A stretch of DNA of 64,000 nt from Patescibacteria group bacterium (lineage in GTDB: Bacteria; Patescibacteriota; Patescibacteriia; Magasanikbacterales; GWA2-37-8): positions 6,163-70,162 of the forward strand of contig JBAZKA010000002.1 in the NCBI GenBank assembly GCA_041651015.1, in the 5' to 3' direction. A program made the translations under genes and the position numbers. Of the stretch, positions 1,345 to 17,956 are shown piece after piece (the stretch's first letter is position 1; each line of letters opens with the position of its first letter). A model generated the notes under the pieces. It was given only the letters and a program-made list of their open reading frames with translations. It made no database searches and was not told where the DNA came from.

Positions 1345-1348
1345 TTTT

Positions 1349-2293
1349 ATGTTGGATTTACTGATCATCGGAGGCGCGGCCGCCGGTTCCAGCGCGGCGA
1401 TTTATGCAGCCAGGCGCAAACTAAATTTCAAAATCGTTACCGACAATATCGGCGGAGAAGTGGCTTTGGCCGGTGAAGTAAATAATTGGCCGGGCACCCA
1501 AAACATTCAAGGCTTTGAATTGGCGCAAAAATTCAATGAGCATGTTAAATCATACGGCGTGGAAGTTGACGAGGGTTGGCGCGTGGAATCCGTAGCGCGC
1601 GCCGAGGGATTTTTCATCGTCACGGCCAAAAATGCCAAAGGCGAAGAAAATAAATACGAAACCAAATCCGTTATTGTCGCGACCGGTATTCATCCGCGCC
1701 ATTTACGCATCCCGGGCGAAGAAGAATTTGCGCGCAAGGGTGTCACCTACTGCACTGTTTGCGACGGCCCGTTTTTCCGGGGCAAAACCACGGTCTCCAT
1801 CGGCGGAGGCAACAGCGTTTTGGAGTCGGTTATTATGATGTCAGGCATCGCGCAAAAAGTTTATTTGCTCACCATTGAACCAAACACGGCCGAGAAAAAA
1901 TTCGGCTTCCCGACCGGCGACGATGTTTTGATTGATAAAGTCAAATCACTGCCCAATGTGGAAATTGTTTACGACGCGAACACTTACGAAATTTTTGGCG
2001 ACACCAAAGTACGCGGTTTAAAATATCGCGACCTCACGGGCGAACACGATCTCGTCACTGACGGCATTATGATTCACGTCGGTATGATTCCCAACGCGCA
2101 ATTTTTGGATGTGGAAAAAGACCCAATCGGACAAATCATCGTGGACCAGAAATGCCGTACGTCTATACCGGGAATCTTTGCCGCCGGCGACGTCACCAAC
2201 ATCCCCTACAAACAAATCGGGGTATCAGCCGGCCAAGGCATTGTCGCGGCGCTCGCGGCCATTGAATATCTCAATAAAATTCCGTCCGTTTAA
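1349..2293 (+). CDS. trxB: thioredoxin reductase-like FAD/NAD(P)-dependent disulfide oxidoreductase
   Basis: GGAAAGSSAAIYAARR FAD motif, redox CTVCDG motif, GGGNS NAD motif, AAGD C-terminal motif. Confidence 0.8.
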   Translation: MLDLLIIGGAAAGSSAAIYAARRKLNFKIVTDNIGGEVALAGEVNNWPGTQNIQGFELAQKFNEHVKSYGVEVDEGWRVESVARAEGFFIVTAKNAKGEENKYETKSVIVATGIHPRHLRIPGEEEFARKGVTYCTVCDGPFFRGKTTVSIGGGNSVLESVIMMSGIAQKVYLLTIEPNTAEKKFGFPTGDDVLIDKVKSLPNVEIVYDANTYEIFGDTKVRGLKYRDLTGEHDLVTDGIMIHVGMIPNAQFLDVEKDPIGQIIVDQKCRTSIPGIFAAGDVTNIPYKQIGVSAGQGIVAALAAIEYLNKIPSV

Positions 2294-2334
2294 GCGGACG
2301 GTCCGCCTTGGGCGGAAAATAACCTTTATTATAT

Positions 2335-2649
2335 ATGGAACCACTCGCCTCATTTTTACCCACCTTGCCGTGGAGTTGGTGGGAAATTTATCTCAACATT
2401 ATTGCCATTGTCGGTACAATCATGCTTGTCTATGGAATTTTTTTAGAATCGGAAAAAAAGCAAGACACGATTTTTTTCATTGGCGCGTTTTGTCTGTTCA
2501 TCTACGCCTTTTGGCTTGGCAACACAATTTTTTGCGTGGCCATGGGCGGTTTTGCCGTGGCCTCGTTTATTGAAGTGCTTGAAATTGTGCTCGGCCGGCA
2601 TATTCACAGCCAAGAATTAATTGAAAAATATAAACATCCGGAAAAATAG
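2335..2649 (+). CDS. small hydrophobic membrane protein, unknown function
   Basis: 104 aa, 3 predicted TM segments, sits between trxB and the kinase. Confidence 0.4.
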   Translation: MEPLASFLPTLPWSWWEIYLNIIAIVGTIMLVYGIFLESEKKQDTIFFIGAFCLFIYAFWLGNTIFCVAMGGFAVASFIEVLEIVLGRHIHSQELIEKYKHPEK

Positions 2650-2672
2650 CTTTACTAACTTTATAACTTTGT

Positions 2673-3659
2673 ATGTACGATTTAATCACCGTCGGCGACG
2701 CGGTTGTTGATACTCATGTGAATATAGACAACGCCAGCGTGGAATGCGACGTGGATACGCGCGCCTGTCGTTTATGTTTGGATTACGCCAGCAAAATTCC
2801 CATTACCGGCAGTTTTCAATCTCTTGGCGGCAACGCGGCCAATGTCGCTTGTGGCGCGACCAAACTCGGGATGAATTCAGCCATCGTCACTTCTATCGGC
2901 GCGGATTCCAACGGCCGAATAATTTTGGAAGAATTAAAAAAATCCAAAGTGGATACTTCGCTCGTTTATCGGGACAAACAAACTCAAACGCGTTATTCCG
3001 TGGTTTTAAATTTTCGCGCCGAGCGCACGATTTTATCCTATCACGAAAAACGTAATTACAAATTGCCGAAAAAAATGCCGGCTACCGAGTGGATTTATTA
3101 CACCAGCATGAGCGGTGGATTTGAAAATTTGCAAAACGCGCTTCTACAGTATCTTGACGATCATCCGAGCGTTAAACTCGCTTACAATCCCGGATCATTT
3201 CAGTTAAAATCCGCCATGAATGAAGTCAAAGAAATTTTACCGCGCGCCGATCTGCTCATCGTGAATTTACAGGAGGCGGAATTAATCGCCGACACAACTT
3301 TAAAAAAAGAAAAAACGATCACCTCGTTGGTTCACAAACTATTGTCGCTCGGCGCGAAAGAAGTGGTTATTACCGATGCTGAACACGGCGCTATTGCCGG
3401 CAACACTGATGAAATTTGGTCAATGGATACATATAAAATTGAGGTAGTGTCCAAAACCGGCGCCGGCGATGCCTTTTCTGCGGCTTATCTCGCGGCTCGC
3501 AATTATGAACACGACATTCGCCTGGCCCTGACTTGGGGCGCGGCCATGAGCGCGGCCGTCATTGCCGAACACGGCCCGCAAAAAGGTCTGATCGGACAAA
3601 AGGCTCTGCAAAAAATGATTGACCGTTTTCCAAATATCAAACCAAAAAAGATATTTTAA
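2673..3659 (+). CDS. PfkB-family carbohydrate kinase (ribokinase-like)
   Basis: 328 aa; GGNAANVA and GAGDAF PfkB signature motifs. Confidence 0.75.
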   Translation: MYDLITVGDAVVDTHVNIDNASVECDVDTRACRLCLDYASKIPITGSFQSLGGNAANVACGATKLGMNSAIVTSIGADSNGRIILEELKKSKVDTSLVYRDKQTQTRYSVVLNFRAERTILSYHEKRNYKLPKKMPATEWIYYTSMSGGFENLQNALLQYLDDHPSVKLAYNPGSFQLKSAMNEVKEILPRADLLIVNLQEAELIADTTLKKEKTITSLVHKLLSLGAKEVVITDAEHGAIAGNTDEIWSMDTYKIEVVSKTGAGDAFSAAYLAARNYEHDIRLALTWGAAMSAAVIAEHGPQKGLIGQKALQKMIDRFPNIKPKKIF

Positions 3660-3671
3660 CAACTTTTTACA

Positions 3672-3708
3672 AAAAAACACCCCGCATGATGCGGAGTGTT
3701 TTTTATTC
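3672..3708. terminator. bidirectional intrinsic terminator
   Basis: A-run, stem caccccgcat/atgcggagtg, T-run; between convergent genes. Confidence 0.6.
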
Positions 3709-3711
3709 TAA

Positions 3712-4440
3712 TTATTTTATCCCGTAAAAATCCACTTGAATCGGTTTATCTATGCCGCGCATCATGTTCAAGTGGTTTTTTCTTTCCTCAAAAAATTCTT
3801 GCGCCAATTCGGCTTCGTCCAAACTTGGCGACGGCGCCAAATCCACCAAACCTAACTCAAAATAACGAGCCTTGGCGCGCATTTCACCGGCCAATGACGG
3901 ATGATATGACTCACGATCGGCCGCTAATTTTAATTTAGCGATCGCGTTTTTAATCTTATCCAAAATAGTTTTGTGTTCTTGAACTCGCGCCAAATACTTA
4001 TCTTTGTTCACACTGACAATTTCTTGCGCGGTAAACTTGGACAAATCATTTCTGGTTTTAATCAGCACTTGCGCGACCGCCAAACGATCATTGTTAGAAA
4101 AATAATTTATTGCCCGGCCAGAATAGACATCCCGCCAATTTAATCCGTAATCACGATATTTAACAAAATTTTCACCCAGCTCAGCCGGCAGATGAGACAA
4201 GAAAAAATGCTCGCCCAGCCGTTCCTCGGCGTCAGACAAAAACTCGCGATGAGCCGTTTGCCACGGCCAAAGTTCATAGCCAAATTTTATCATCAGGTTT
4301 TCAATTTTTTCCAAGGACGTTTCTTTGTTTCTTTCCCATTCATCACGCGCGCTTTGCATTCTAACAACAATTTCCGATGGTAAAAGCGGCGGGAGATTGT
4401 CCAGCGTCATTTGAAAAATGGAAATGGTATGTTGGGACAT
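3712..4440 (-). CDS. hypothetical protein
   Basis: 242 aa ORF with no recognisable motif; convergent with kinase gene. Confidence 0.5.
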   Translation of the reverse strand: MSQHTISIFQMTLDNLPPLLPSEIVVRMQSARDEWERNKETSLEKIENLMIKFGYELWPWQTAHREFLSDAEERLGEHFFLSHLPAELGENFVKYRDYGLNWRDVYSGRAINYFSNNDRLAVAQVLIKTRNDLSKFTAQEIVSVNKDKYLARVQEHKTILDKIKNAIAKLKLAADRESYHPSLAGEMRAKARYFELGLVDLAPSPSLDEAELAQEFFEERKNHLNMMRGIDKPIQVDFYGIK

Positions 4441-4443
4441 AAT

Positions 4444-4896
4444 TTAACGCCCTTTGATAATATACATGGCCACGCCCGCGGCCACCGACACATTCAAACT
4501 GTTTTTGATCCCGCGCATGGGCAATTCCACGCTCGCGTCGCAATATTTTAGCAAAGATTTGGTCACGCCGGTCTTTTCATTGCCGACCACAAGGGCAAGC
4601 GGAAACTTTGGTGTCCAATCAAAAATATTTATACTGGTTTTGGTTTGTTCCAAAGCGATTATATTATACCCCTTTTCACGCAAATCCCCAAGCAAGCGCC
4701 ATGTTTGTTTCACATACTCCCAAGGCACGGATTTTTCCGCGCCCAAAGACACTTTGTCCAATTGCGTATGCGGAGGACGGGCCGTATATCCGCAAAGATA
4801 GATTTTATCCACGCCCGCGCCATCCGCGGTCCGAAACATAGCGCCGACATTGTGGGCGCTGCGGATATCGGGCAAAATTAAAACAAATTTTTCCAT
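4444..4896 (-). CDS. SpoU/TrmH-family RNA 2'-O-methyltransferase (TrmL-like)
   Basis: 150 aa; SpoU motifs (PDIRSAHNVGAMFRTADGAG, ALVVGNEKTGV, LPMRGIKNSLNVSVAAGV). Confidence 0.8.
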   Translation of the reverse strand: MEKFVLILPDIRSAHNVGAMFRTADGAGVDKIYLCGYTARPPHTQLDKVSLGAEKSVPWEYVKQTWRLLGDLREKGYNIIALEQTKTSINIFDWTPKFPLALVVGNEKTGVTKSLLKYCDASVELPMRGIKNSLNVSVAAGVAMYIIKGR

Positions 4897-5299
4897 ATTA
4901 TTTAATCAAATATTATCACAACAAACCAGATAAATCAAAAACCACCCTATTTTGTAAAAAACCCGAGAAATTTATCTCGGGCTTTCAGGGTTCAATGGAA
5001 TCCGTACTCGACAAATATATTTTGTCGAAAATTCACGCTTTTGTCAACATAACCGTGAATAGATGTGATTTTTTCGGAATTATTCACGGTTATCAAGCTA
5101 CAACAAATAGCCATAATTACGTATCCGAAGCTCGCGCGCGAGATTTTCAAACGTATTGCCCTCCTCCATAATATCTGATATATTTAATTCATTATACCCC
5201 TCGGGGTATAACCCAAATTCATTAAAAATTTTATCATATTTTAGCGGTTTTTACCACTAGTTATGATAAAGGTAGTTCAGCGACATCGCTTCGCTCGTC

Positions 5300-5560
5300 G
5301 CTGAATGAGCCGCGCTTACAGCGTTGTCGTCTCGTCGCTTCGCGACGTCGCCGAACAACGCTTATACAAAATGTCCGTCGCCCGCTTGCGCGGCTCCGGC
5401 CACATTGTATAAGCGCGGCTCGTTATATGAAATACATGTTTTCCTTTTGGGCTTCGCCCAGCTCTTAAAAAGAATTCAATTTTGTTTTTTTATTAATTAA
5501 TGAGGGGGAATAAGGTGTTTTTTCCGCTGTCGCTACAAAAACGATTTATTTATAAGGGGA
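5300..5560 (+). repeat. island repeat copy 1 (long hairpin gagccgcgcttaca...tgtataagcgcggctc + conserved core gttatatgaNatacatgttttcc...gctcttaaaaagaat...)
   Basis: core about 70-80% identical to 13197-13320 and to the reverse complement of 15955-16090. Confidence 0.7.
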
Positions 5561-5599
5561 AAACGAATACAATAACTTTGCCTAACACGAAAATAGTTT

Positions 5600-7408
5600 A
5601 TGCCAAAAATTAAGGATATACCAAAAATTGATCGCCCAAGAGAAAGGTTTCTGAAAAAAGGAGCTGACGCACTTTCAAAAAGTGATCTTTTGGCAATTCT
5701 TTTAGGTAGTGGAATTAAGGGGAAAAATGTTAGACAACTTTCTGAAAGTATTATTAAAAAATTTGGTAAAAACTTTTTGAACATAACCGTTGATGATCTT
5801 TTAGAAATTTCAGGGATTGGACAAGCAAAAGCCCTCCAAATAGCGTCCGCAATATCATTAGTAAAAAGATTTTACGACGAAAACAAAACTAATGAAATCG
5901 TTATAAAAAATTCTCAAGATGTTTTATCCCTTACTTACGATTTAAGAGATAAGAAAAAAGAACATTTAGTTTGCCTTTATTTAAACGCACGAAATACTTT
6001 ACTAAAAAAAGAAATTGTCAGTATCGGTCTTTTAGATAAGGCATTACTGCATCCGAGAGAAATTTTTTATCCTGCAACCGAATTAAACGCCGCCAGCGTT
6101 ATTTTGGTTCACAATCACCCTTCGGGCGATTCTTCACCAAGCGAAAAAGACAACCAAATCATTGAAAAAATCGTACAAGCTGGTGAAATAATGGGAATAC
6201 CAGTTGTTGATTTCATTATCATTTCTGAAAATAATCATTACAGTTTCTACGAAAAATTAAATAAGCAAAAAGCAAGCGTTGATTATGTTGCAGACGGAAT
6301 ACAAGGCACACTTTTTGCCGTACTTGAAGTTGAAAAACCCGCCTACGAGGTAACGGCTATACAAAAAATTGATAAACCCTATTTCCACTTTTCAAAAACT
6401 CAAAATGATACCTTCCAATTGCAGAATAGAAGATATTTGGGCAATAAATACAAACTGCTCGGATTTATTGAAGATATTGTTGCTGAAAAATGCAACGGAA
6501 TAAAATCATTTTGTGATATTTTTGCGGGTACAGGTGTTGTCGGAGAAAGATTTAATAAGCCAGAAATAAAAATTATTTCGAATGACTTCCTTTTTACAAA
6601 TTATGTTTGCCTAAAAGCGTTCCTTGGTACAAATTCACCTATTCAGAAAATTGCAGATAAAATTGATATTCTCAATAGTTTAAAAACTGATCGAGATAAT
6701 TATTTTTCAAAATACTTTGGTAATACCTATTTTTCGCTAGAAAATGCTAGAAAGATTGGAGCAATCCGTGAAGAAATAGAAAAAATGGCCGAAACGGAAG
6801 AAGAAAAAAAAATTCTCATTTGTTCCTTAATTTATGCAGTTGATAAGGTTGCAAATACAGTCGGACATTATGACGCTTTTCGTAAAGATTTAGATATGCT
6901 ACAGCCATTAAAACTTTTGGCTCCCGATATTGACTACTTAAATAATGGAAATAACGAAATTTACAAAGAAGACGCAAACATCTTGATTAGAAAAATTGCT
7001 TGCGACGTTTTGTACATAGATCCGCCCTATAACTCGCGCCAATATTCAGATGCCTATCATTTACTGGAAAATTTAGCTGAATGGAAAAAACCTAATGTTG
7101 AAGGAATGGCAAAAAAAATGGACCGCTCTCACATAAAAAGTTCCTATTGTCTTAAAAATGCTACACAAGCATTTGAGGACTTGATTAAAAATGCTAATTG
7201 TAAACATATATTATTGTCTTATAATAACACTAGGGATTCAAAGGATGGACGTTCAAATGCCAGAATAAACGATAATGATATTTTACGGATATTAAAAAAT
7301 AAAGGTGAAGTAGAAATTTTTGAAAGAGATTACAAGGCCTTCACTGCTGGAAAAAGCAACGGCGACGGAAACGTCGAAAGAATTTTTTATTGTAATATAA
7401 CAAAATAA
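5600..7408 (+). CDS. fusion protein: N-terminal RadC-like JAB/MPN domain + C-terminal Dam-like (D12, alpha-class) N6-adenine DNA methyltransferase
   Basis: 602 aa. N-terminal half has helix-hairpin-helix and the RadC HNHPSG(x)SPS(x)D motif. C-terminal half has RYLGNKYKLL, FxGxG (DIFAGTGVVG) and DPPYNSRQY in Dam-family order. Confidence 0.75.
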   Translation: MPKIKDIPKIDRPRERFLKKGADALSKSDLLAILLGSGIKGKNVRQLSESIIKKFGKNFLNITVDDLLEISGIGQAKALQIASAISLVKRFYDENKTNEIVIKNSQDVLSLTYDLRDKKKEHLVCLYLNARNTLLKKEIVSIGLLDKALLHPREIFYPATELNAASVILVHNHPSGDSSPSEKDNQIIEKIVQAGEIMGIPVVDFIIISENNHYSFYEKLNKQKASVDYVADGIQGTLFAVLEVEKPAYEVTAIQKIDKPYFHFSKTQNDTFQLQNRRYLGNKYKLLGFIEDIVAEKCNGIKSFCDIFAGTGVVGERFNKPEIKIISNDFLFTNYVCLKAFLGTNSPIQKIADKIDILNSLKTDRDNYFSKYFGNTYFSLENARKIGAIREEIEKMAETEEEKKILICSLIYAVDKVANTVGHYDAFRKDLDMLQPLKLLAPDIDYLNNGNNEIYKEDANILIRKIACDVLYIDPPYNSRQYSDAYHLLENLAEWKKPNVEGMAKKMDRSHIKSSYCLKNATQAFEDLIKNANCKHILLSYNNTRDSKDGRSNARINDNDILRILKNKGEVEIFERDYKAFTAGKSNGDGNVERIFYCNITK

Positions 7409-7410
7409 CT

Positions 7411-9228
7411 ATGAAAAAACCTTGGTCAATTACTACAACACTAAGAAATCCCGAAAGATTGAGAGATTTTTTAATTGTTTTAAGACAACTTGAAAATTGC
7501 AAGTGGGATTTAGAAAGTCAGAAAAAATATCAAATTCTTTTGATAAAAGAGAGGGTTTACGGCTATGGAAGCAATCAATTTTACAATGGATTATCTCAAA
7601 AACAAATTGATTTAATTGACGATCAAACAAAAACAATTACCTTTGAACAAGCCGAAACGATTTTTAATGCTAAAAACTACGAAGATCCTTCAACGAGAGG
7701 GCGGCAATCAATAAATCCTCTTAAAAAATTCGGACTCGCTGTTATTAAAGACGAAAAAATCTGTATAACCAGCTTAGGAAAACTATTTTTAAAAGACGAT
7801 TTTGATCTTGGTGAAATATTTTTTAGAAGTTTTATTAAGTGGCAAATCCCAAATCCTGATAGCGATGACTATAAACTTGAAGATGGATACAATATAGAAC
7901 CATTTGTCGGCGTGCTTCATCTTATTCGGGAAGTAAATGAAAAATCTAGAAAATCAGGAGAAAAAGAAAAAGGAATAAGCAAGGAAGAATTTTCCTTATT
8001 TTGTCCAACCCTTGTTGATTATGAAGATATAGAGCTTTATTCTGAAAAAATTATTGCCCTACGGAAAAAACTTAAAGACAAAACGAAGCAAGAACAAAAA
8101 ACAATCCGCGACAAATATAAAAAAACTTTCGCACGGGAATTTCTTGGAAAATCAAATACTACAGAAATTCAAAAACTCTTAAAAAATCTCAAAGACTACG
8201 GAGATAACGCTATCAGATACTTCCGCCTAACTCGCTATATTTATATACGGGGTGGTGGTTTTTATATTGATCTGGAGCCGAGAAGATCAGTTGAAATCAA
8301 TGCTTTGTTGGATTTTGATAATGCTAAGTCGAAGACCTTTGAGACAAAAGAAAAATACTTAGACTATATTTCTGACATCTCGGAGCCAAAACTACCGTGG
8401 GAAACTAAAGAAAAGCTTACTGAAATTGCCATAAAATTACTTGAAGAAATAAAGTTGTTTGAACGAGAAACAAGGGTAACACCAAAAGTATTTTTGGATT
8501 ATCAAAAATTGGATGGAGATGGATTAAAAAAATTTATCAATGAACTGCGAAACTACCGAAGAGAGCTGCAGGACAAACAAAATCACCAAAAATCACAAGA
8601 TACGGAACAAATTAAATCCTACATTCAAGAACTTGAAAATATTTTTGAATCTGAAGATCGGCCAATACTGCTTGAAAAGTTGTCATCGCTAGGTCTGAAT
8701 GCCCTAAACGATGCATTAAAAATACAACCAAACTATCCAGTTGGTGATGATAACGAGCCAACATTTACGGCACCGGCAAACACGCCAGATATAGAGTGTT
8801 TTTATCAAGGTTTTAATGCTATCTGTGAGGTAACAATGCTAACGGGAAGAGATCAATGGTACAACGAGGGGCAACCAGTGATGAGACATTTAAGAGATTT
8901 TGAGAATAAACATAGCGATAAAACTACATATTGCTTGTTTATTGCTCCCCAAATGCACAGAGATACTATAAACACCTTTTGGACAGCCATAAAATACGAA
9001 TACGAGGGCAACAAACAAAGAATAATCCCTTTATCAATAAACAATTTCGTGTCTCTTTTAAAAATACTCGTACAAATAAAAACCGAGAATAAATTTTTAA
9101 AGCACAGCGAAATTGCTCGCCTATACGATGAAATAATTAATTCATCAAATTCTTTTAGCGATTCCGATGGTTGGCTTAGAAATATTCCCACCGCCATTTC
9201 GTCATGGCAAGAAAGCCTAAATTTTTAA
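7411..9228 (+). CDS. putative Type IIS restriction endonuclease, AlwI-family-like
   Basis: 605 aa. N-terminal W-x-I-T-T-x-R-N-P-E-R pattern recalled from RE_AlwI-family proteins. Located 2 bp after one methyltransferase and overlapping the next. Family assignment is from memory, not a search. Confidence 0.5.
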   Translation: MKKPWSITTTLRNPERLRDFLIVLRQLENCKWDLESQKKYQILLIKERVYGYGSNQFYNGLSQKQIDLIDDQTKTITFEQAETIFNAKNYEDPSTRGRQSINPLKKFGLAVIKDEKICITSLGKLFLKDDFDLGEIFFRSFIKWQIPNPDSDDYKLEDGYNIEPFVGVLHLIREVNEKSRKSGEKEKGISKEEFSLFCPTLVDYEDIELYSEKIIALRKKLKDKTKQEQKTIRDKYKKTFAREFLGKSNTTEIQKLLKNLKDYGDNAIRYFRLTRYIYIRGGGFYIDLEPRRSVEINALLDFDNAKSKTFETKEKYLDYISDISEPKLPWETKEKLTEIAIKLLEEIKLFERETRVTPKVFLDYQKLDGDGLKKFINELRNYRRELQDKQNHQKSQDTEQIKSYIQELENIFESEDRPILLEKLSSLGLNALNDALKIQPNYPVGDDNEPTFTAPANTPDIECFYQGFNAICEVTMLTGRDQWYNEGQPVMRHLRDFENKHSDKTTYCLFIAPQMHRDTINTFWTAIKYEYEGNKQRIIPLSINNFVSLLKILVQIKTENKFLKHSEIARLYDEIINSSNSFSDSDGWLRNIPTAISSWQESLNF

Positions 9229-9230
9229 AT

Positions 9231-10007
9231 ATGGGTATGAAAAAAAATATTATCTACAACGACGATTGCATAAACATACTTAACACGAAGATTGATAAGA
9301 GTTCTATTGATCTTGTCTTTGCCGACCCTCCGTACAATTTATCTGGCAATGGTCTAAAATGGCAGGGCAGCAAAACTGGTGGAGATTGGTATATGGTGAA
9401 TGAGCATTGGGACAAAATGACTGCCCCTGAATATCTACAATTTACCAGAAAATGGATCGGGGCTTGCCATAAAATTTTAAAAGACACAGGATCAATTTAT
9501 ATTGCATGTAGTTACCACAATATCGGTGAGGTAATGATTGTTTTGAAACAATTAGATTTCAAGATAAATAATATTATTACTTGGTACAAAACAAACGCCA
9601 TGCCGAATATGACAAGGAGGGTGTTTACTCACGCAACAGAATTTGTAATTTGGGCTGTTAAAGGTAGTGGATGGACTTTTAATTATAAAGATCTTAAAGA
9701 AATAAACCCTGAAAAACAAAAAGACGGAACCGAAAAACAAATGCGTGATTTTTGGGAATTACCCTTAGTTCAAGGCAAGGAAAGAATACGCGGAAAAGAC
9801 GGCAAAGCGTTACATCCAACTCAAAAACCAGAAGAAATGTTAAAAAGAATCATTTTAGCCAGTTCCAATGAAGGCGATACTGTTTTAGATCCATTTTTAG
9901 GAAGCGGGACAACTGCCGTTGTGGCTAAAAAATATGGTCGCAAGTGGATTGGGATTGAAAAAGAAAAGCAATATTTTAAGATTGCTGAAGAGCGAATAAA
10001 AAAATAA
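9231..10007 (+). CDS. beta-class N4-cytosine/N6-adenine DNA methyltransferase
   Basis: DPPY (FADPPYN) N-terminal and FxGxG (DPFLGSGTT) C-terminal, which is the beta-class order; ATG 9231 chosen to avoid overlap with upstream stop at 9228. Confidence 0.8.
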   Translation: MGMKKNIIYNDDCINILNTKIDKSSIDLVFADPPYNLSGNGLKWQGSKTGGDWYMVNEHWDKMTAPEYLQFTRKWIGACHKILKDTGSIYIACSYHNIGEVMIVLKQLDFKINNIITWYKTNAMPNMTRRVFTHATEFVIWAVKGSGWTFNYKDLKEINPEKQKDGTEKQMRDFWELPLVQGKERIRGKDGKALHPTQKPEEMLKRIILASSNEGDTVLDPFLGSGTTAVVAKKYGRKWIGIEKEKQYFKIAEERIKK

Positions 10008-10011
10008 ATTC

Positions 10012-11154
10012 ATGACCAGCACAAGAGAACAAAATGGCGGTTACTATGCAATTAAGGGTTTTACCTATCAATTTGATAAGTCTCTTTTAGAAATCCTTAA
10101 GAACCAAACGCAGGATGTCGAACTTGAACAAATTCAAGACATTGGGCTAAGCGATTACTATATTCAAGTTAAATACAAAGAAACTCAAAATTACGCCGAT
10201 TCAAAAATCAAACCAGCAGTGTTGCAATTATTAAAATGTTTTCTGGATGATAAAAATAAAAAATTCAAACTATATTGTTATTTTAAAGACAAATCGTCAC
10301 AGACAATCGCTTTAACCGATACCAAGCTTGATGAAATATTAGGTTCAGATAGTAGTGCTTACACGCAAAGTGATAAACAAGCTTTTGTGGGAAATTTCAC
10401 TTTGGAATTTTCAAGTAATTTTGAGAAGCAGTTTAGTGATCTTATAAAACTTATAAAAACCTGTTTTAGTTTAAAGACAGAGGAAGAGGCAACAACATAT
10501 CATGCAATATTTAAAGCAAATTTATTTGGTATAGCCATTAAAAAGAATCCAAAACAAAGAACAATAAATTATAAAAAACTAAAAGAAGTCGCTAACAGCA
10601 ACGAAAAAATAATATTTGATATAGCTTATTGTAAATATCTAAAGATGGAACGATATTTGAAGTATGTAAAAAAAGAGTATTTCACTTTCAAAAAAGTAAA
10701 TACTCCGAGCAAAGAAAGACTTTTTGTTGTTGAGATGGATAATTCAACAAGGGATGGAGATGCCATTCAAATCATAACAAATATAAAAAATCGATACTTC
10801 AAAAAGGATACATCCCCAGCTCCTTATGTTTGTTTATTTGGGATAGACAACGAAAGGATTGCTAATCTCAAACAAAAACTTTGGGACAAGGGGTTGATAT
10901 TTTCTGACGGCACACATTTTGATAGGGATAAATTTAGAATGACTGATCTTATTGCAGACACACATAATAACAATTGTGGTATAACATTTAAGCTTTTGTC
11001 ACTTGAACAATTACCTCTCTTTTTCAAAAAGAAACGACCCGATGAGACTTTTGTATTTTTAACATCTGGCGATGGAGAATGGCGAACAAAAGTTAAAGAA
11101 TTCAAAGAGTTTTATATTGGTCGCACAAAAAATATTACTAAAATAATTCAATAA
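10012..11154 (+). CDS. DUF4297-like (Cap4-type PD-(D/E)xK-like) putative nuclease, partner of HerA ATPase
   Basis: 380 aa. N-terminal GFTYQ motif and D...(I)QVK motif resemble REase-fold QxK variants. Immediately precedes HerA-like gene (4 bp gap). Confidence 0.45.
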   Translation: MTSTREQNGGYYAIKGFTYQFDKSLLEILKNQTQDVELEQIQDIGLSDYYIQVKYKETQNYADSKIKPAVLQLLKCFLDDKNKKFKLYCYFKDKSSQTIALTDTKLDEILGSDSSAYTQSDKQAFVGNFTLEFSSNFEKQFSDLIKLIKTCFSLKTEEEATTYHAIFKANLFGIAIKKNPKQRTINYKKLKEVANSNEKIIFDIAYCKYLKMERYLKYVKKEYFTFKKVNTPSKERLFVVEMDNSTRDGDAIQIITNIKNRYFKKDTSPAPYVCLFGIDNERIANLKQKLWDKGLIFSDGTHFDRDKFRMTDLIADTHNNNCGITFKLLSLEQLPLFFKKKRPDETFVFLTSGDGEWRTKVKEFKEFYIGRTKNITKIIQ

Positions 11155-11158
11155 ATTT

Positions 11159-12892
11159 ATGCCGGAAGTAAAAATTTCAGCTGAAGTTATCTCTGTCTTT
11201 CCAAACAAGGTTAGAATAGCAGTAAGCGATATTGAATCGTTTAAAATAGCTGGGGAACTCTTGGCGGTCGGCTCATATCTCAAAATTTTTGACAACAACG
11301 ACTGTTTTATTGTTGCAATAATAGAAAATTTCTCTATCGTGATGTCTGATCCAGATAAGGAAGGAAAAAGAGATAAGTCCTATATAGTCGAGGCTGTGCC
11401 TCTCGGATTTATCAATTCGAGTGGCGAATTTATTCGAGGTGGCAATAATATTGCAATTCCTCCAAAAACAGTCGAACCAGCTAAAAAAGAAGACATACAA
11501 AAAATATATGACGACATCAAAGATAAAGATCGATTTTGTTTCTCAAAATTAGCTCAAGACACCTCGATAACTGTTCCTGTTGATGGAAATAAATTTTTCA
11601 ATAAACACATCGCCATAGTTGGGTCTACAGGATCCGGTAAATCACATGCTTTGGCAAAAATAATTCAAGAGGCTATAAAAGAAAAAAATATTGGTTATAA
11701 TGGTTTAAATAATTCTCATATAATTATTTTCGACATTCACGATGAATATAAAACTGCGTTTTCTTCAGCCTCATACATTAACGTCGACCAATTAGTGCTC
11801 CCATATTGGCTTATGAACTCGGACGAACTCGAAGAATTGTTTTTAGAATCAGGTGATTTTAATAATTATAATCAAAGCTCAATCCTAAATAGGCTCGTCA
11901 CCGAGAATAAAAAATTAAATAACCCTGGCCAAAAAATCGAGTACGGTAGTCCAGTTGTATTCAAAATAAATGAAATTTTAAACTGTCTAGTTAACTTAAG
12001 CAAAGAGACAAAAAATTATAAAAATCAAGACGAAATTTCTATAAAGGGGGCCTCTAAAACTTTTAGTGGGGATAGTGAAAAATATAAATGTTATTTTGAA
12101 AAAATATTAGAATTTGAAGAACCGAAAGCGCAAAACTTTTCAAAAGGTAGTTTTGCGGATGGAAGTTTGGATAAATTTATCTCTAGATTAAAAAATAAAT
12201 ATTCTGACGCAAGGCTAAAATTTTTATTTGATCCTGCTGTAGAAAGTTTAAAATTTGAAGAAATTCTTCGTCAATTTATTTCTTACAAAACTGGCAAAGA
12301 ATCCAATGTCACAATAATTGATTTAAGTGGTGTCCCCTTTGAAGTATTAAGCATTACAGTATCCCTTATTTCAAGAATTTTGTTTGATTATGCTTATTTT
12401 TATAAAAAAACAAATACTTCATCAATTAACGAAACTCCATTATTGGTGGTATACGAAGAGGCGCATAAATATGTTCCAAAAAATCACTTGGCAAAATTCA
12501 ACGCATCGAGGTTTGCAATAGAGAGAATTGCAAAAGAAGGTAGAAAATATGGAATAACGTCTATAATTGTAAGCCAGAGGCCATCTGAAGTATCTGAAAC
12601 TATATTTTCACAGTGTAGCAATTTCATAGCGATGAGACTAACCAACCCAGAAGATCAAAATTATGTTCGTCGTCTTTTACCAGATACTCTTGGACCACTA
12701 ACAGAATCTTTACCAATACTCCAAGCTGGGGAGGCTCTATTAATTGGCGATTCTGTAGTTATGCCATCACTTGTAAAAATTGACCCATGCACAAATTCAC
12801 CATCATCAAATGATATTAAATATCTTGAAGAGTGGAAGAAAGAATGGAAAGATGTCGCGTTTGATCCAATAATTAAGAAGTGGCAAAAGTAA
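11159..12892 (+). CDS. HerA/FtsK-like (DUF87) ATPase
   Basis: 577 aa. Walker A IAIVGSTGSGKSH, Walker B LLVVYEEAHKY, SIIVSQRPSEV motif; N-terminal HAS-barrel-like region. Confidence 0.75.
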   Translation: MPEVKISAEVISVFPNKVRIAVSDIESFKIAGELLAVGSYLKIFDNNDCFIVAIIENFSIVMSDPDKEGKRDKSYIVEAVPLGFINSSGEFIRGGNNIAIPPKTVEPAKKEDIQKIYDDIKDKDRFCFSKLAQDTSITVPVDGNKFFNKHIAIVGSTGSGKSHALAKIIQEAIKEKNIGYNGLNNSHIIIFDIHDEYKTAFSSASYINVDQLVLPYWLMNSDELEELFLESGDFNNYNQSSILNRLVTENKKLNNPGQKIEYGSPVVFKINEILNCLVNLSKETKNYKNQDEISIKGASKTFSGDSEKYKCYFEKILEFEEPKAQNFSKGSFADGSLDKFISRLKNKYSDARLKFLFDPAVESLKFEEILRQFISYKTGKESNVTIIDLSGVPFEVLSITVSLISRILFDYAYFYKKTNTSSINETPLLVVYEEAHKYVPKNHLAKFNASRFAIERIAKEGRKYGITSIIVSQRPSEVSETIFSQCSNFIAMRLTNPEDQNYVRRLLPDTLGPLTESLPILQAGEALLIGDSVVMPSLVKIDPCTNSPSSNDIKYLEEWKKEWKDVAFDPIIKKWQK

Positions 12893-12959
12893 ATAAAACA
12901 AACAGACAAAAATTCCCTCCCCTTAAACCCCTTCCTTTTTGACTGTTTGTTTGAGAAGA

Positions 12960-13330
12960 AAGAAATAAGGAGTTTTGAATTTTGGGCATTCACCCCTGAC
13001 CCCTCTGCCCAAAATCCAAAACGGAAAAAGAAATTTTAAAATTTTTTAAAACAATTCCGACTGCTGTCGGAAAAAAGAAAAGGAATACATCAGCTAACAA
13101 CGAGTATCCGGTTACGGCTTTCCCCGAAAGCCTCCACCCAAATTTTTCTTTCGCTTCGCTTCAGAAAAACTTCGGATACTCGTAACGTTATATGACATAC
13201 ATGTTTTCCGTTGGGGCTGCCGCCCCGCTCTTAAAAAGAATCCGATTTCGTTTTTTGGTGATTGAGCGAGGGGAAATATAGTGTTTTCTTCGCTACGCTA
13301 CGAAAACCGAATTATTTAATAAAAAATATT
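12960..13330 (+). repeat. island repeat copy 2 (inverted partial core 12960-13030, hairpin aacgagtatccg...cggatactcgt 13088-13197, direct core 13197-13320)
   Basis: aligned by eye to copies 1 and 3. Confidence 0.7.
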
Positions 13331-14137
13331 ATGGCTGACAACTACTACGTTTACGTCTACATTGATCCTCGGAATTACGAGGAATTTTACTATGGAAAAG
13401 GCAAGGGCAACAGAAAAGTAGCGCACCTATATGATGAAAAAGACACAGAAAAAACTAAAATTATAAAAGCCATTCAAAAAGAGGGGCTTGAACCTATAAT
13501 TAAAGTGGTTGCAAAAGGATTATCAGAAAGTGATGCATTTTTAATCGAAAAAACTTTAATTTGGAAACTTGGAAAAAATTTATCAAATATTTCATCGGGT
13601 CATTTTTCAGATAAATTCAGGCCACATAATAGTTACCACCTTAATCTGAATAGTTTTGATTTTGCAAACGGAATTTTTTATGTAAATGTTGGCGAAGGCG
13701 AAACTCGGGCATGGAGAGATTGCCAAAATTTTGGCTTCTTGGCGGCTGGGCAAGGCACAAAGTGGAGCGAACCACTAAAAACATTGAATATCGGTGATAT
13801 TGTCGTGGCATACTTAAAACGAAAGGGATATGTCGGAATTGGTAGGGTAGTCGAAAAAGCCAAGCGGGTACTGGATTTTAAATTTGACGGAAAATCGCTA
13901 AAAACCCAAACTTTAGACAGCACCGATCTCTTTAAAAATTCAGATAATGAGAATACAGAATTTTTGGTCAAAATCGATTGGATTAAAAGCGTGCCGACAA
14001 ATGAAGCGAAGTGGAAAAATAATTCGGGACTATTTACAACACAATTAATTAAGGCATCACTTGAAAACCAGGTAAAAACAATTAATTTTTTAGAAAAAGA
14101 ATTCCATGTTAATTTTACGGACATAATGAACGATTGA
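13331..14137 (+). CDS. GIY-YIG nuclease fused to PUA-like (EVE-type) domain; putative modification-dependent endonuclease
   Basis: N-terminal YVYVYIDP...FYYGKGKGNRK is a GIY-YIG-type motif. C-terminal W-RDCQNFGFL...IGDIVVAYL...GYVGIGRVV resembles the EVE/PUA beta-barrel pattern. Start moved from 13262 to ATG 13331. Confidence 0.55.
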   Translation: MADNYYVYVYIDPRNYEEFYYGKGKGNRKVAHLYDEKDTEKTKIIKAIQKEGLEPIIKVVAKGLSESDAFLIEKTLIWKLGKNLSNISSGHFSDKFRPHNSYHLNLNSFDFANGIFYVNVGEGETRAWRDCQNFGFLAAGQGTKWSEPLKTLNIGDIVVAYLKRKGYVGIGRVVEKAKRVLDFKFDGKSLKTQTLDSTDLFKNSDNENTEFLVKIDWIKSVPTNEAKWKNNSGLFTTQLIKASLENQVKTINFLEKEFHVNFTDIMND

Positions 14138-14265
14138 TATATTTTATAAAATTATTAATTCCGCTAATTTTCAATTCATACTCAAATATACATATTAGTA
14201 AATTTGATTATTGGATTAATTGAAGCCCTTGTTGATAACTTTTTGTTAATAGTATAAAAATGGCT

Positions 14266-14290
14266 AATTTTAGCCATTTTTATAACTACT
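14266..14290. promoter_or_regulatory. palindromic operator-like site AAAAATGGCTAAttttTTAGCCATTTT
   Basis: near-perfect inverted repeat directly upstream of the -35; related GGCTAA..TTAGCC motifs at 15894-15917, 27680-27695 and 27807-27829. Confidence 0.45.
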
Positions 14291-14299
14291 TGACATAAT

Positions 14300-14329
14300 C
14301 AAAAAAATCATTTATAATATCATTATTCC
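14300..14329 (+). promoter_or_regulatory. near-consensus sigma70 promoter (TTGACA-18-TATAAT)
   Basis: TTGACA 14300-14305, TATAAT 14324-14329, about 40 bp upstream of ATG 14371. Confidence 0.6.
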
Positions 14330-14370
14330 TACACAAGTAGTACTTCACACTAAATTAATTAATTTTTCTT

Positions 14371-15096
14371 ATGAATCAAGAAAATAAACAAATAACTCCA
14401 CCATATTTGAGCATGGCAAAACTTGCCAAATTAGTTGAAATCGTGAAATCAAGAAACATGACCCAGGTTAATCCTACTCATTTTATCACTCAAGGATTCA
14501 GTCAGGCAGATGCATACGTTGCAATAAACTCATTGCGCTTCCTGGGTCTAGTAGATGACAACAATAATACCACCGATTTATTTCGTAAATTTCAATTAGT
14601 AGGAGAACAGGGCAAAAAAGGCATGGAGGAAGTAATAAAATCTGCATACTCTAAATTATTTGAATCATTCGCTAATGGGAATCCATACGATGAAGGAAAT
14701 GAAGATAATTTAATAAATGATTTCATGATTCAATATGCTATATCAAAAAGAATCGCGGGACCAGCATCAAAAGCATTTGTTTGGTTGTGCGAACAAGCTG
14801 GACTCAGAGAACAATCCATAAAAATACAAGAAAGAAAAATCCGTGTTACATCAACAAAAAAATTGGCAGATAAAAGTAACAACAAAAACAAACCGCAAGC
14901 TGACACAAAAAATGAAAATCCTACTGGAGTAGCTCTCACTCTTAATGGTGGTATTATCATATCAATACCAACAACGGACATAAGAACATCACAAGCAATT
15001 GCATTGGGCGAACTTAAAAGCGCCGTCGAGGAACTTAATAAGTTTGCATTAAAATATATTGTGGAAACCGAAACTAAAAATAATGATGCTGTATAG
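14371..15096 (+). CDS. hypothetical protein (helical N-terminal domain, Lys/Asn-rich linker, small C-terminal domain)
   Basis: 241 aa with no catalytic motif recognised; first gene of promoter-driven pair. Confidence 0.55.
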   Translation: MNQENKQITPPYLSMAKLAKLVEIVKSRNMTQVNPTHFITQGFSQADAYVAINSLRFLGLVDDNNNTTDLFRKFQLVGEQGKKGMEEVIKSAYSKLFESFANGNPYDEGNEDNLINDFMIQYAISKRIAGPASKAFVWLCEQAGLREQSIKIQERKIRVTSTKKLADKSNNKNKPQADTKNENPTGVALTLNGGIIISIPTTDIRTSQAIALGELKSAVEELNKFALKYIVETETKNNDAV

Positions 15097-15111
15097 CAAA
15101 CTTACCATACT

Positions 15112-15732
15112 ATGAATATCTATCTTGACGAATCATACAATCTCCAAAAAAATAAAGGGAAAATGTTTATAAGCATCAACGGGTTTGCTGTCCTTGATGA
15201 TAAAGTACTCCGCAAACGCTGGAAAATCGTTCGAAAGGATTATTTAAAAATGAAACGACGTATTCACGCGACTGATTCACGCTTTGAGGATCTCCGTGGA
15301 AAAAGTATAAAAATGCTTGGACGTCACGATGTAAATATTCTTTCGATATTCCAACTGACGCAAGAAATATCTCATGACTACTTTGATACAAATGGCATAA
15401 GATTTGATACCGTGTACACTTCTCTTCTTAAAAAACTATTCACTGATTTATCTCTTGGTGAATACAAGCAAGCACGCATAGTTATGGACGCGAGAAAGCA
15501 TAAAGGCGGGATACTTGGGGAAATCATTTTCCAAAAAACTATCGAGGGATTTCTTTCTGATAAATTCCCTTCAACACGCTGTGTGTTAAAACTTACGCCA
15601 TCCTACGCAGACATTCTGATTGAACTTGCAGACTTTGTGTCCAACACATTTTACAAAGAATATCAGCAAGATTCGGAACACATATTCAAGAAACTTGGAT
15701 TTCGGTTGATACAAATCAAAAACCCGCTATAA
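15112..15732 (+). CDS. DUF3800-like protein
   Basis: 206 aa. N-terminal MNIYLDESYN matches the conserved N-terminal D-E motif recalled for DUF3800; sits 15 bp after the upstream gene. Confidence 0.55.
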   Translation: MNIYLDESYNLQKNKGKMFISINGFAVLDDKVLRKRWKIVRKDYLKMKRRIHATDSRFEDLRGKSIKMLGRHDVNILSIFQLTQEISHDYFDTNGIRFDTVYTSLLKKLFTDLSLGEYKQARIVMDARKHKGGILGEIIFQKTIEGFLSDKFPSTRCVLKLTPSYADILIELADFVSNTFYKEYQQDSEHIFKKLGFRLIQIKNPL

Positions 15733-15871
15733 AAGCGGATTTCCGTAAGAGCCTTTTGGGAATGTCTTTGCTTCAACGAGATGTTCCTGAAAGAGAACGC
15801 CCTCCACAAAGCTTTACCCTAAGGACTTATCTTCTAAATACATTATAACATGAATAGCCGGTTTAGTCAAT
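15720..15871 (-). ncRNA. candidate small antisense/convergent transcript (promoter TTGACT-17-TATAAT at 15871-15843 on minus strand; terminator hairpin ccgct-tttat-agcgg + T-run at about 15745-15720)
   Basis: promoter and intrinsic terminator read directly on the minus strand; no ORF; transcript ends at the stop codon of the DUF3800-like gene. Confidence 0.3.
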
Positions 15872-15949
15872 GTACTGTGGATAATTATTAACATTTTGGC
15901 TAATTCAAGCCAAAATTATAGTACACTGGAGACAAAAATTAATGTTTTT

Positions 15950-16165
15950 GGCCGCCGGGCATTCACCCCTTTTGTTCCCCTCTGCCCTGCGCCCAAAAGC
16001 GACAAAAAACGAAATCGGATTCTTTTTAAGAGCCATTTGAATTGACGAAATAACGGAAAACATGTACATCATATAACAGCGTGTATGCGGCTACGGTTCC
16101 CCTATCGGCGAACCTCCGCCCATATCGCTAAGGCGACATCGCATACACGCGAACGTTGTACGAAA
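15950..16165 (-). repeat. island repeat copy 3 (inverted orientation; core 15955-16090, hairpin cgcgtgtatgcg...cgcatacacgc 16090-16160)
   Basis: reverse complement aligns with copies 1 and 2 (gttatatgatgtacatgttttccgtt...gctcttaaaaagaatccgatttcgtttttt). Confidence 0.7.
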
Positions 16166-16715
16166 TAAATTATTTACTAGCCCCACCAGCATTGAAGGGA
16201 GGTAACAATGAAATGGTGGCGAAAAGTGGTAGAAATCTATCACAACATGTTCAATGTGAAGTTCGCTGTCCTTTCGGCCGCCTTTAATGGTCTGGTCGCA
16301 ATGATGGTGAACATGGCACACAGCCCCGAGCAGTACCTGATGGCAGGACTTGCACAGGCGGCCTCAAGCTTCCTGTCAACCGGAGTCACGGCAAGAGTGG
16401 TTCAACACTTTTCGCCCATTCGGTCCGCGCCAGTCTCGTACTTCTTCGGAAGCTTGGTGCCTGCAACCATGACGTTTGTGATGAGCTTGGCAGTTCACCT
16501 TTGGAACAACACTCCAGAGGTTCTGGCAAGTTGTGTGGCTCCGACGGTCATCAGCTACACGACCAGCTACATCACAAACTACATCACCCGGCGTGGCTAC
16601 ATGCTGCCCGGAAACTACAAGGAGGTGCAAAAATGATCCCGCGTCAGCCTCCGAACAGGACTGACGCGGGACACTCACTCAATGAATGTGGGGCTAGTAA
16701 ATAATTTAGCCGATA
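16166..16715 (+). mobile_element. 550-bp unit bounded by perfect 19-bp inverted repeats (AAATTATTTACTAGCCCCA / TGGGGCTAGTAAATAATTT) carrying one GC-rich ORF
   Basis: IRs at 16166-16184 and 16697-16715; interior GC content clearly higher than flanks; 11-bp-stem hairpin after the ORF. Confidence 0.5.
16208..16636 (+). CDS. hypothetical hydrophobic protein (GC-rich, probably foreign)
   Basis: 142 aa; strong SD GGGAGGT 6 nt upstream of ATG; several hydrophobic segments. Confidence 0.5.
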   Translation: MKWWRKVVEIYHNMFNVKFAVLSAAFNGLVAMMVNMAHSPEQYLMAGLAQAASSFLSTGVTARVVQHFSPIRSAPVSYFFGSLVPATMTFVMSLAVHLWNNTPEVLASCVAPTVISYTTSYITNYITRRGYMLPGNYKEVQK

Positions 16716-16864
16716 TGCGGTTCAAGAAAAAAGTATAAATATTTTCAGCGGATATTTTTTTCTCTCACCCATATTTCGCACACATCTAAATAATATGGAA
16801 TGTGCGAAACATCGCATATCGGCATACGTTATCTGAAATTAAATTTCTGGACTATAATAAAATT

Positions 16865-17443
16865 ATGGATTTACGCATTTACAACGAGGCTAAGCAATTT
16901 GTTTTTGACTCTTTCAATAAAGCCGAAAAACCTTCGCAGATAAAACATTTTGTCAAAACAGTGCATTGGTTAAAAATTCTGTCGCCTAATGCCGATGAGG
17001 CGTTGCTCGTAGCGGCGATTGCTCACGATATCGAAAGGGCTTTTCGACAAAAAGATGTTTTAGAAAAAAAGACTTCAGCGGGTTTTACAAGTATAGAATT
17101 TTATCGTCTGCATGAAGAGCGTGGCGCTGAAATTATTGCTGAATTTCTAAAACATAAAAACGTGGATGACGGCTTTGTTGAAAGAGTTAAAAAGTTGGTT
17201 TCTCGACATGAAGAAGGCGGTGATGATGATCAAAACCTACTAAAAGATGCTGATAGCGTTAGCTTCTTTGAAACCAACGTTCCATTTTTTCTCGATAAAA
17301 AATCATTGGAAATTGGCAAGGAAAAAGTTAGACTGAAATTTGATTGGATGTATAATAGAATAACATCCGAAAAAGCGAAACAAATTGCTCAGCCTATGTA
17401 TGAAAAAGCAATTAGTGATTTAAACAAGGGTCCGGAAATTTAA
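16865..17443 (+). CDS. HD-domain phosphohydrolase
   Basis: H...HD motif (AAIAHDIER) and downstream D (LLKDAD); start placed at ATG 16865 (MDLRIYN). Confidence 0.6.
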   Translation: MDLRIYNEAKQFVFDSFNKAEKPSQIKHFVKTVHWLKILSPNADEALLVAAIAHDIERAFRQKDVLEKKTSAGFTSIEFYRLHEERGAEIIAEFLKHKNVDDGFVERVKKLVSRHEEGGDDDQNLLKDADSVSFFETNVPFFLDKKSLEIGKEKVRLKFDWMYNRITSEKAKQIAQPMYEKAISDLNKGPEI

Positions 17444-17543
17444 CATCAGATAACACGCGATATCCAAAATTCGCCTTCGCTTCGCTACGGAAAACATCGC
17501 ATACACGCGTACGTTATTGTAAAATTAGTTTAATTCAAACCAT

Positions 17544-17885
17544 ATGAAAAAAATAAACTGGACTCGCGTTATTTTCATCGTCGGTGTTATCGCCCTTTTA
17601 ATTGGCGCCATTGACCCCTTGGAGGGTTCGGTGATAATTGTAGCCGGTAGTGCGCTCATCGCGCTCGCGACATATTTAGCGCGCGACCGATACTGGAAAA
17701 TATTTTTCGCGTCTTTTGTATTGATTATAATGGGCGTGGCTCTTATGTTTTATATGTCGTCTCTCGGCGGTTTTGGCGGAGAATCTACTCTGTCTTGGGG
17801 GTGGGCCGCGCTTATGATTCCCTATCCGATCGGATGGCTGATGACCATAATTACGTTAATCGTCAAAGCTGTTAAAAAACAGTAA
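17544..17885 (+). CDS. small integral membrane protein, unknown function
   Basis: 113 aa, 3-4 TM helices. Confidence 0.45.
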   Translation: MKKINWTRVIFIVGVIALLIGAIDPLEGSVIIVAGSALIALATYLARDRYWKIFFASFVLIIMGVALMFYMSSLGGFGGESTLSWGWAALMIPYPIGWLMTIITLIVKAVKKQ

Positions 17886-17956
17886 GTAATAAATAAAATT
17901 GCCAACTGATAAAATATCCGATACACTTAATTAACATTAAACATTAACTTAAAAAT

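Follow-up and report, generated by a model that had tools for sequence, protein, structure and literature searches.

A predicted Type IIS-style restriction cassette and a DUF4297-HerA pair form a probable two-layer antiviral operon in a Patescibacteria bacterium

DUF4297-HerA, or Hailibu, is an antiphage system for which several structures have been solved (PDB 8xau/8xav, 8ziq and 9c1m). In vitro, six HerA and twelve DUF4297 subunits make up HerA6:DUF4297(12), a machine that is driven by adenosine triphosphate (ATP) and degrades DNA without sequence specificity (PMC11291478). The trigger of the system is stated as unknown (PMC11291478; PMC12198126), and a phage-encoded, Mu-Gam-like protein inhibits DUF4297+HerA as well as Sir2+HerA (bioRxiv 10.1101/2024.04.14.589459). 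Here we describe a predicted DUF4297-HerA pair that lies directly behind a putative Type IIS-style restriction-modification cassette in a Patescibacteria group bacterium (GCA_041651015.1, contig JBAZKA010000002.1, positions 6,163 to 70,162 of the forward strand). This whole stretch of 64,000 nucleotides (nt) is called the window, and coordinates given without a locus number refer to it.

The restriction part of the locus resembles AlwI (GGATC 4/5) and MlyI, PleI and BstNBI-BspD6I (GAGTC), with which the window endonuclease shares the RE_AlwI family and an aligned PD...E catalytic stretch. AlwI has two methyltransferase activities for its asymmetric site (PMC4081073), as the window has two methyltransferases, but those of the window are separate genes on either side of the endonuclease rather than one fused chain. 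Unlike the systems of this group, the window combines an alpha-class enzyme carrying an N-terminal RadC/JAB part with a beta-class, CcrM-like one. Defence modules that sit co-oriented within restriction loci are also known, such as prrC in EcoPrrI (PMC12707154) and tgvAB in a Type I locus of Vibrio cholerae (PMC11411939). Like these and the 'guilt-by-embedding' candidates, the window has a second defence module at a restriction operon, and relatives of its pair occupy the slot between hsdS and hsdR, beside rhuM. It differs in that the host system is Type II/IIS, the module is appended 3' rather than embedded, and the predicted effector is a DNA nuclease-translocase rather than an anticodon nuclease or a Type IV enzyme; to PrrC/RloC-type modules the pair is analogous by genomic position only. 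In the literature searched we found no description of DUF4297-HerA linked to restriction systems. What is new here is this specific and recurrent linkage, the parts and the organising principle being already known.

The locus comprises five consecutive open reading frames (ORFs), which are also consecutive entries in the public annotation (MFA5127651 onward):

5600-7408, + strand, gene 1, RadC-JAB/D12 methyltransferase fusion, 602 amino acids (aa)
7411-9228, + strand, gene 2, AlwI-family endonuclease, 605 aa
9204-10007, + strand, gene 3, beta-class (N6_N4) DNA methyltransferase, 267 aa
10012-11154, + strand, gene 4, divergent DUF4297 nuclease subunit, 380 aa
11159-12892, + strand, gene 5, HerA ATPase, the DUF4297 partner, 577 aa

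We consider it probable that these genes form a two-layer antiviral operon assembled from two independently mobile modules. On comparative evidence, the first module (5600-10007) is a widespread and conserved three-gene restriction-modification cassette of Type IIS style, the second (10012-12892) is a DUF4297-HerA pair, a bare two-ORF unit without a conserved upstream region, and the five-gene operon is not an ancestral unit. A first-pass annotation, made from the letters of the window alone, had proposed a single composite cassette acquired as a unit, with the co-occurrence of all five genes in related genomes as a check. The comparative data speak against both and for two independent modules. 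A metagenome scan with the window endonuclease gave 80 loci (L092-L171), and none of the 80 that carry the three-gene cassette has an intact DUF4297-HerA pair. Conversely, when genomes were scanned with aligned DUF4297 homologues, 79 loci emerged, to which exact look-ups added others; the window endonuclease is in none of the loci from the alignment scan.

At the level of the single proteins, profile searches bore out the first-pass annotation for the restriction genes. The gene 1 product, called a RadC-Dam methyltransferase fusion, consists of a full RadC (UPF0758_N plus JAB domain) joined to an alpha-class (D12) N6-adenine methyltransferase, with E-values of 2e-37 for Pfam RadC, 1.5e-22 for UPF0758_N, 6e-33 for MethyltransfD12 and 1e-112 for PADLOC MTase_II. 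Its motifs are intact: JAMM HNHPSGDSSPSEKD at residues 171-184 (HxHx7Sx2D), FAGTG at 308 and DPPY at 474. The 605-aa gene 2 product, read as AlwI-family-like, matches Pfam RE_AlwI (8e-82, model positions 4-441 of 441 covered) and, over its full length, PADLOC PDLC03393 (1e-134), a model that carries the label 'Type II nicking endonuclease'. Among solved structures the large subunit of N.BspD6I comes nearest (1e-34, low identity), and PD459...E473-V-T is aligned with its catalytic segment. We predict an AlwI-family restriction or nicking endonuclease of Type IIS type, which has many homologues of 70-97% identity. The gene 3 product, proposed as a beta-class methyltransferase, matches Pfam N6_N4_Mtase (5e-64) and, at 264 bits and under the equivalog cut-off, the NCBIfam CcrM model; its motif order, DPPY (41) then FLGSG (231), is that of the beta class, and it is CcrM/HinfI-like.

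Both methyltransferases have intact S-adenosylmethionine (SAM) and DPPY motifs and are co-conserved with the endonuclease in ~80 loci. Two methyltransferase classes beside one AlwI-family enzyme fit a Type IIS design, as had been supposed, and most likely each enzyme would modify one strand of an asymmetric site, for which a GGATC-like or GAGTC-like sequence is possible. Avoidance of the candidate k-mers is uninformative on the recognition site (GGATC z = -1.4, GAGTC z = -0.8). In the host part of the window (1-5000, 16001-64000), only GATC is depleted overall, and strongly so (196 observed, 349 expected); the most avoided 5-mer is GTAAC/GTTAC (21 vs 49). This scarcity suggests past or present restriction pressure that is either unrelated to the operon or not resolvable from it.

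The three-gene cassette is a conserved unit with an interchangeable tail. RadC-D12, AlwI endonuclease and beta methyltransferase stand together and in the same order in nearly all 80 loci, and the RadC and D12 parts form a single ORF in 50 of the 54 related loci. The position just 3' of the beta methyltransferase is a variable slot whose occupants mostly follow at gaps of 3-15 nt. In 11 loci the occupant is an AAA_13 protein of ~790 aa (PADLOC PDC-S06) with a PrrC-like C-terminus; others hold an Mrr_cat nuclease (PDC-S02) with another HerA, an OLD/AriA-like ATPase, GajA plus GajB (Gabija), DUF6119, a PDC-S05 protein or a serine recombinase, and often the slot is empty. We take the PDC-S and PDC-M prefixes of these PADLOC names to stem from the embedding study. 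In L137 (8851-8964), 1.5 kilobases (kb) 3' of an AlwI-type cassette and without HerA, there is a 38-aa DUF4297 N-terminal fragment (MNNNGGHYAIKGFLYQFDKALREILRNPSKKVGIEKRM, then a stop), which looks like the decayed remnant of another independent pairing.

These cassettes bear directly on whether the five genes might be one obligate system, in which gene 2 would encode a natural nickase like the BstNBI/BspD6I large subunit and DUF4297-HerA would destroy the duplex. The label of the best PADLOC model (1e-134), the closeness of N.BspD6I among solved structures and the lack of a small-subunit ORF in the operon agree with such a system. The identity to N.BspD6I is low, however; two enzymes of the family, AlwI and MlyI, form transient homodimers that cleave both strands (PMC3017599), and the cassette occurs ~80 times without DUF4297-HerA, its slot often being empty. 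We regard an obligate nickase system as highly improbable.

The RadC part of gene 1 is an observation in its own right. A complete RadC, with an HhH-like N-domain and a JAB domain whose metal site is intact, is fused to the first methyltransferase of AlwI-family cassettes (window 5600-6260; L092-L171; L173 1236-3053; L014 600-1115; L001 1435-1941). Between two different cassettes the RadC part is better conserved (74%) than the methyltransferase part (42%). Free-standing RadC genes adjoin methyltransferases in other DUF4297-HerA loci.

The identification of gene 4 as DUF4297-like held in part. Its product matches PADLOC DUF4297 (5e-39), PDB chain 8xav_G (1.3e-18) and three solved DUF4297 chains in all, and it has the motifs GFTYQ (16-20) and QVK (52-54); no Pfam family, PF14130 included, matches even at E<=10, and the NCBIfam DUF4297_antiphage match (NF042945, 1.6e-48) reaches 166 bits against a 300-bit cut-off. 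G9, G10, Y12, Q20, D22, E39, D43, Q52 and K54 are invariant in 45 homologues, and the nuclease residues D43...Q52-x-K54 are retained. We accept it as a presumptive divergent DUF4297 subfamily with a Cap4-like PD-(D/E)xK nuclease. Viral contigs contained no relative of this subfamily. An exact look-up of the gene 4 product found no match, probably because the public annotation starts this gene elsewhere.

For gene 5 the proposed HerA/DUF87 ATPase was upheld by Pfam DUF87 (1e-35), PADLOC HerA PDLC02188 (8e-251) and NCBIfam HerA_antiphage_2 (842 bits, equivalog cut-off 850). The Walker A motif, GSTGSGKS, is at 155-162; a Walker-B-like stretch, LLVVYEEAH at ~428-436, was read by eye, the Walker B pattern search having given no match. 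At 2.4e-187, the match to the HerA of the solved complex (PDB 8xau) agrees with the earlier equation of the pair with the published DUF4297-HerA system, and we predict a hexameric ATPase of the HerA/FtsK type that partners DUF4297. As in Hailibu, DUF4297 precedes a co-oriented HerA at a 4-nt gap, and the nuclease D...QxK residues and Walker A are kept; unlike Hailibu, the window DUF4297 is divergent by the Pfam and NCBIfam measures just given, the pair is joined to the 3' end of a restriction-modification operon, and the host belongs to the Patescibacteria. Gene 5 also matches DndH weakly (PADLOC 7.5e-12; DptH 7es4 1.6e-06). Systems of the DndFGH/SspE type likewise bring together a host DNA-marking function, a HerA/FtsK-type motor and a nuclease, but the window has no phosphorothioation genes; its mark would be adenine methylation, and it has its own endonuclease.

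The relatives of the pair show how it joins restriction systems. A HerA homologue lies directly 3' of DUF4297 in essentially all related loci. Among loci whose DUF4297 is 74-88% identical to that of the window, and in the comparison of loci with 74-85% identical DUF4297, similarity extends from the DUF4297 start codon to the HerA stop, and therefore the mobile unit is two bare ORFs; stand-alone pairs have an upstream intergenic region of their own of ~100-130 nt. Upstream partners in this 74-88% set are a Type I hsdMSR operon (gap of 3-6 nt), a MjaI-type Type II system (388 nt), a ResIII plus N6_Mtase/Eco57I enzyme pair (6 nt), a methyltransferase cluster (6 nt) and a second AlwI-family system (5 nt, seen on 11 contigs), which consists of a RadC-D12 fusion, a D12 methyltransferase and a 511-aa endonuclease 25% identical to that of the window. 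Two cases have no restriction system at all.

Across the alignment scan, with restriction genes labelled by seed sequences annotated in this analysis and duplicate loci removed, a restriction gene abuts DUF4297-HerA in at least 14 of 79 distinct loci and lies within 1 kb in 4 additional ones, counts that are lower bounds. Five of the 14 are embedded, in the order hsdM-hsdS-[DUF4297-HerA]-rhuM-hsdR. The partners span Type I, Type III (mod-rhuM-res), Type IIG (Eco57I/MmeI-like, ISP-like) and Type II, in hosts that include Flavobacteriia, Deltaproteobacteria, Cyanobacteria, Scalindua and a Methanosarcinales archaeon. This recurrent docking to many restriction types strengthens the earlier suggestion that the coupling to restriction-modification is meaningful.

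A simpler account is pure juxtaposition: defence-island dynamics and genome streamlining would have brought two autonomous systems side by side, which are at most co-transcribed and additive in effect, with the restriction cassette serving as a stable carrier whose post-segregational killing helps maintain the locus. Each module does occur independently, the slot behind the cassette takes many unrelated effectors, and defence genes are generally embedded in Type I restriction, BREX and DISARM loci (bioRxiv 10.1101/2024.01.29.577857). DUF4297 proteins of 80-85% identity are found next to restriction systems of unrelated types, which speaks against specific co-adaptation between the proteins. 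Chance packing fits less well with the identity of the neighbours, however. An abutting upstream gene is a restriction gene in ~14-16 of 17 cases, whereas non-abutting neighbours are not; the upstream genes at distances above 100 nt, which serve as an internal control, encode TPR, AAA_15, UvrA, Macro, TIR and integrase proteins, and none is a restriction gene. The restriction gene is on the same strand as the pair in all 23 loci with any detected restriction gene, and the pair's own upstream region has been lost, which implies dependence on the restriction transcript. We judge that pure juxtaposition, a strong rival, falls a little short of an even chance.

The embedded loci also bring to mind a guard arrangement, in which restriction-modification proteins would hold DUF4297-HerA inactive until a phage anti-restriction factor releases it and abortive infection follows. 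The hsdS-hsdR position of the pair in several loci is the slot of prrC in its Type IC locus (PMC12707154), and the AAA_13/PDC-S06 proteins with PrrC-like C-termini fill the equivalent slot behind the cassette in 11 loci. Yet near-identical pairs partner Type I, II, IIS and IIG enzymes that have no common surface, and this promiscuity makes a guard less likely; moreover, no interaction domain is evident, and characterised pairs defend without a restriction partner (PMC11291478). Neither the DUF4297 nor the HerA protein of the window matches PrrC or AAA_13 in Pfam or PADLOC. A guard of this kind seems improbable to us.

Some genes accompany the pair in particular clades. No third gene 3' of HerA is common to all loci. 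A PDDEXK_1 nuclease follows HerA only in the Type I-linked clade (L001 12801-13550; L175 11793-12545), and two small ORFs (102 and 129 aa, no family match) do so only in the clade linked to the second AlwI system (L173 8293-8992); the window has no such clade-specific extra gene directly 3' of HerA. In Type I-embedded loci a RhuM-family gene is always found between HerA and hsdR (L042 5399-6475; L044 3539-4636; L071 10375-11406 and 11357-12421; L081 12075-13106). The RhuM proteins of a deltaproteobacterial and a Methanosarcinales assembly share 85% identity, which suggests that the entire embedded block has recently passed between domains.

Under our preferred reading of a two-layer operon, the methyltransferases would, by homology, mark host DNA and the endonuclease would cut unmarked incoming DNA. 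A HerA hexamer with twelve DUF4297 subunits would carry out ATP-driven, non-specific DNA degradation, as in the solved relatives. The restriction operon would supply the pair's expression, free DNA ends arising from restriction of unmethylated DNA would feed HerA-DUF4297, and the restriction system would thereby provide self/non-self discrimination for a degrader that has no specificity of its own. In sister loci the same 3' slot houses other backup effectors; RloC, a relative of the AAA_13 proteins found there, is activated by double-strand breaks (PMC12707154). We favour a functional link between pair and restriction system that would be substrate-based, since the partner enzymes share only the breakage of unmodified DNA. 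The inhibition by the Mu-Gam-like phage protein also counts for this idea of DNA ends. In a more ambitious form of the idea, which we regard as doubtful, DUF4297-HerA is a generic restriction amplifier that has no promoter or trigger of its own, draws expression and substrate from whichever system it is docked to, and loads on ends or nicks left by the endonuclease in unmethylated DNA alone.

Gene spacing and signals within the locus were compared with this reading. The ORFs are separated by 2, -25, 4 and 4 nt, consistent with the first-pass description of genes at most 4 base pairs apart or overlapping. The 25-nt overlap of genes 2 and 3 may not be real: a beta methyltransferase start at Met10 or Met12 would leave a gap of 2 or 8 nt. 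Many homologues of this protein align only from residue 10 or 12, and the public annotation gives it a different start. At the operon junctions the next ATG is only 2-4 nt from the preceding stop codon. All five genes are without a Shine-Dalgarno sequence (5570-5600, 7381-7411, 9982-10012, 11129-11159), whereas the gene at 16208 has GGAGG (16190-16210), as would fit genes that are of foreign origin or that rely on translational coupling. With 4 nt between it and the last restriction gene, and no upstream region of its own, the pair is probably expressed from the transcript of the restriction operon and coupled to that operon in translation. Promoters and terminators between the genes had been named as signs of independent units, and on this point the outcome was divided: no terminator-like site occurs on the + strand at any of the junctions, but a promoter-like match stands before gene 4.

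That match heads several points that weigh against a coupled two-layer operon. It is sigma-70-like (TTGAAA-16-TAAGAT, 9955-9982), lies 30 nt upstream of the DUF4297 start and could serve gene 4, which may thus have an internal promoter; the promoter scan discriminates poorly, since such matches are frequent in AT-rich DNA (55 found, 36 +/- 8 expected). In the compact genomes of Patescibacteria, close spacing is weak evidence by itself. The linkage counts, which have no genome-wide baseline, belong here as well, and about three quarters of related DUF4297-HerA loci have no adjacent restriction gene. Lastly, characterised DUF4297-HerA pairs protect as two genes alone (PMC11291478), so restriction is dispensable for the pair's function.

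The operon belongs to a stretch of 30-36% guanine plus cytosine (GC) at ~5.0-15.8 kb, within DNA of 43-48% GC, which is bordered by a SpoU methylase gene on one side and by rubrerythrin, ruvC and yebC on the other. Two repeats, A and B, recur in and around it:

5422-5528, + strand, repeat A copy 1, 70-180 nt upstream of gene 1
13187-13294, + strand (direct), repeat A copy 2, heading the next cassette (13331-15732)
16003-16077, - strand (inverted), repeat A copy 3, abutting repeat B copy 2 and marking the right end of the low-GC island
12984-13032, + strand, repeat B copy 1 (GGGCATTCACCCCT..CCCCTCTGCCC..AAAA), 90 nt past the HerA stop
15957-16009, repeat B copy 2

The core of repeat A is GTTATATGA-ATACATGTTTTCC...GCTCTTAAAAAGAAT.C.ATTT.GTTTTTT. 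Its 30-mer, allowing <=3 mismatches, occurs 3 times in the 64 kb where 0 are expected, and the repeat B 14-mer 2 times, again against 0 expected. Copies 1 and 2 of repeat A have ~125 nt in common that end 20-55 nt from a start codon, so placed that repeat A may be a shared promoter or leader. A search of 4800-18000 against Rfam (E<=0.1) matched the repeats to no known RNA. The island repeat described earlier on both sides of the operon is real. Repeat A also bounds a neighbouring, unrelated three-gene cassette and is no sign that the five genes were transferred together. An integron cassette reading, prompted by attC-like GTTAT-type ends and hairpins near 5350-5425 and 13100-13190, was dropped, as alignment gave the shared A/B repeat architecture without clear attC symmetry. 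No recombinase was found among the neighbouring ORFs scanned (1349-4896, 13331-18532), to which the IntI scan was confined.

The neighbouring low-GC cassette (13331-15732) encodes a GIY-YIG protein with a PD-T4-3-like N-terminus and a PDC-S11-like C-terminus, a PDC-M34A-like DUF5343 protein and a DUF3800 protein. Like the five-gene operon it is bounded by repeats A (13187-13294) and B (15957-16009), and it is probably a further defence cassette. A separate 40-nt repeat, AAACATCGCATACACGCG.ACGTTAT..., occurs at 16134-16173, 16807-16846 and 17492-17531 and, inverted, near 5352-5382. Its copies are spaced 670-690 nt, each shortly upstream of a small ORF (113-213 aa, one with an HD domain), and this repeat may act as a promoter or leader common to these ORFs or mark a cassette boundary.

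The structural papers name the trigger of DUF4297-HerA, and its means of sparing host DNA, as open questions. Fusion of the pair to restriction systems recurs across every major type, with no conserved upstream region that belongs to the pair, and the pair uses a slot that is also used by PrrC-like, Gabija-like and OLD-like modules. If the doubtful amplifier idea were true, it would answer how a nuclease machine without specificity of its own is switched on and prevented from attacking host DNA, and would explain why a DNA-end-binding, Gam-like phage protein blocks it. With this locus, 'guilt-by-embedding', known from Type I, BREX and DISARM loci, comes to include a docking slot at the 3' end of a Type II/IIS cassette; the locus also documents substantial layered defence in a small-genome Patescibacteria bacterium.

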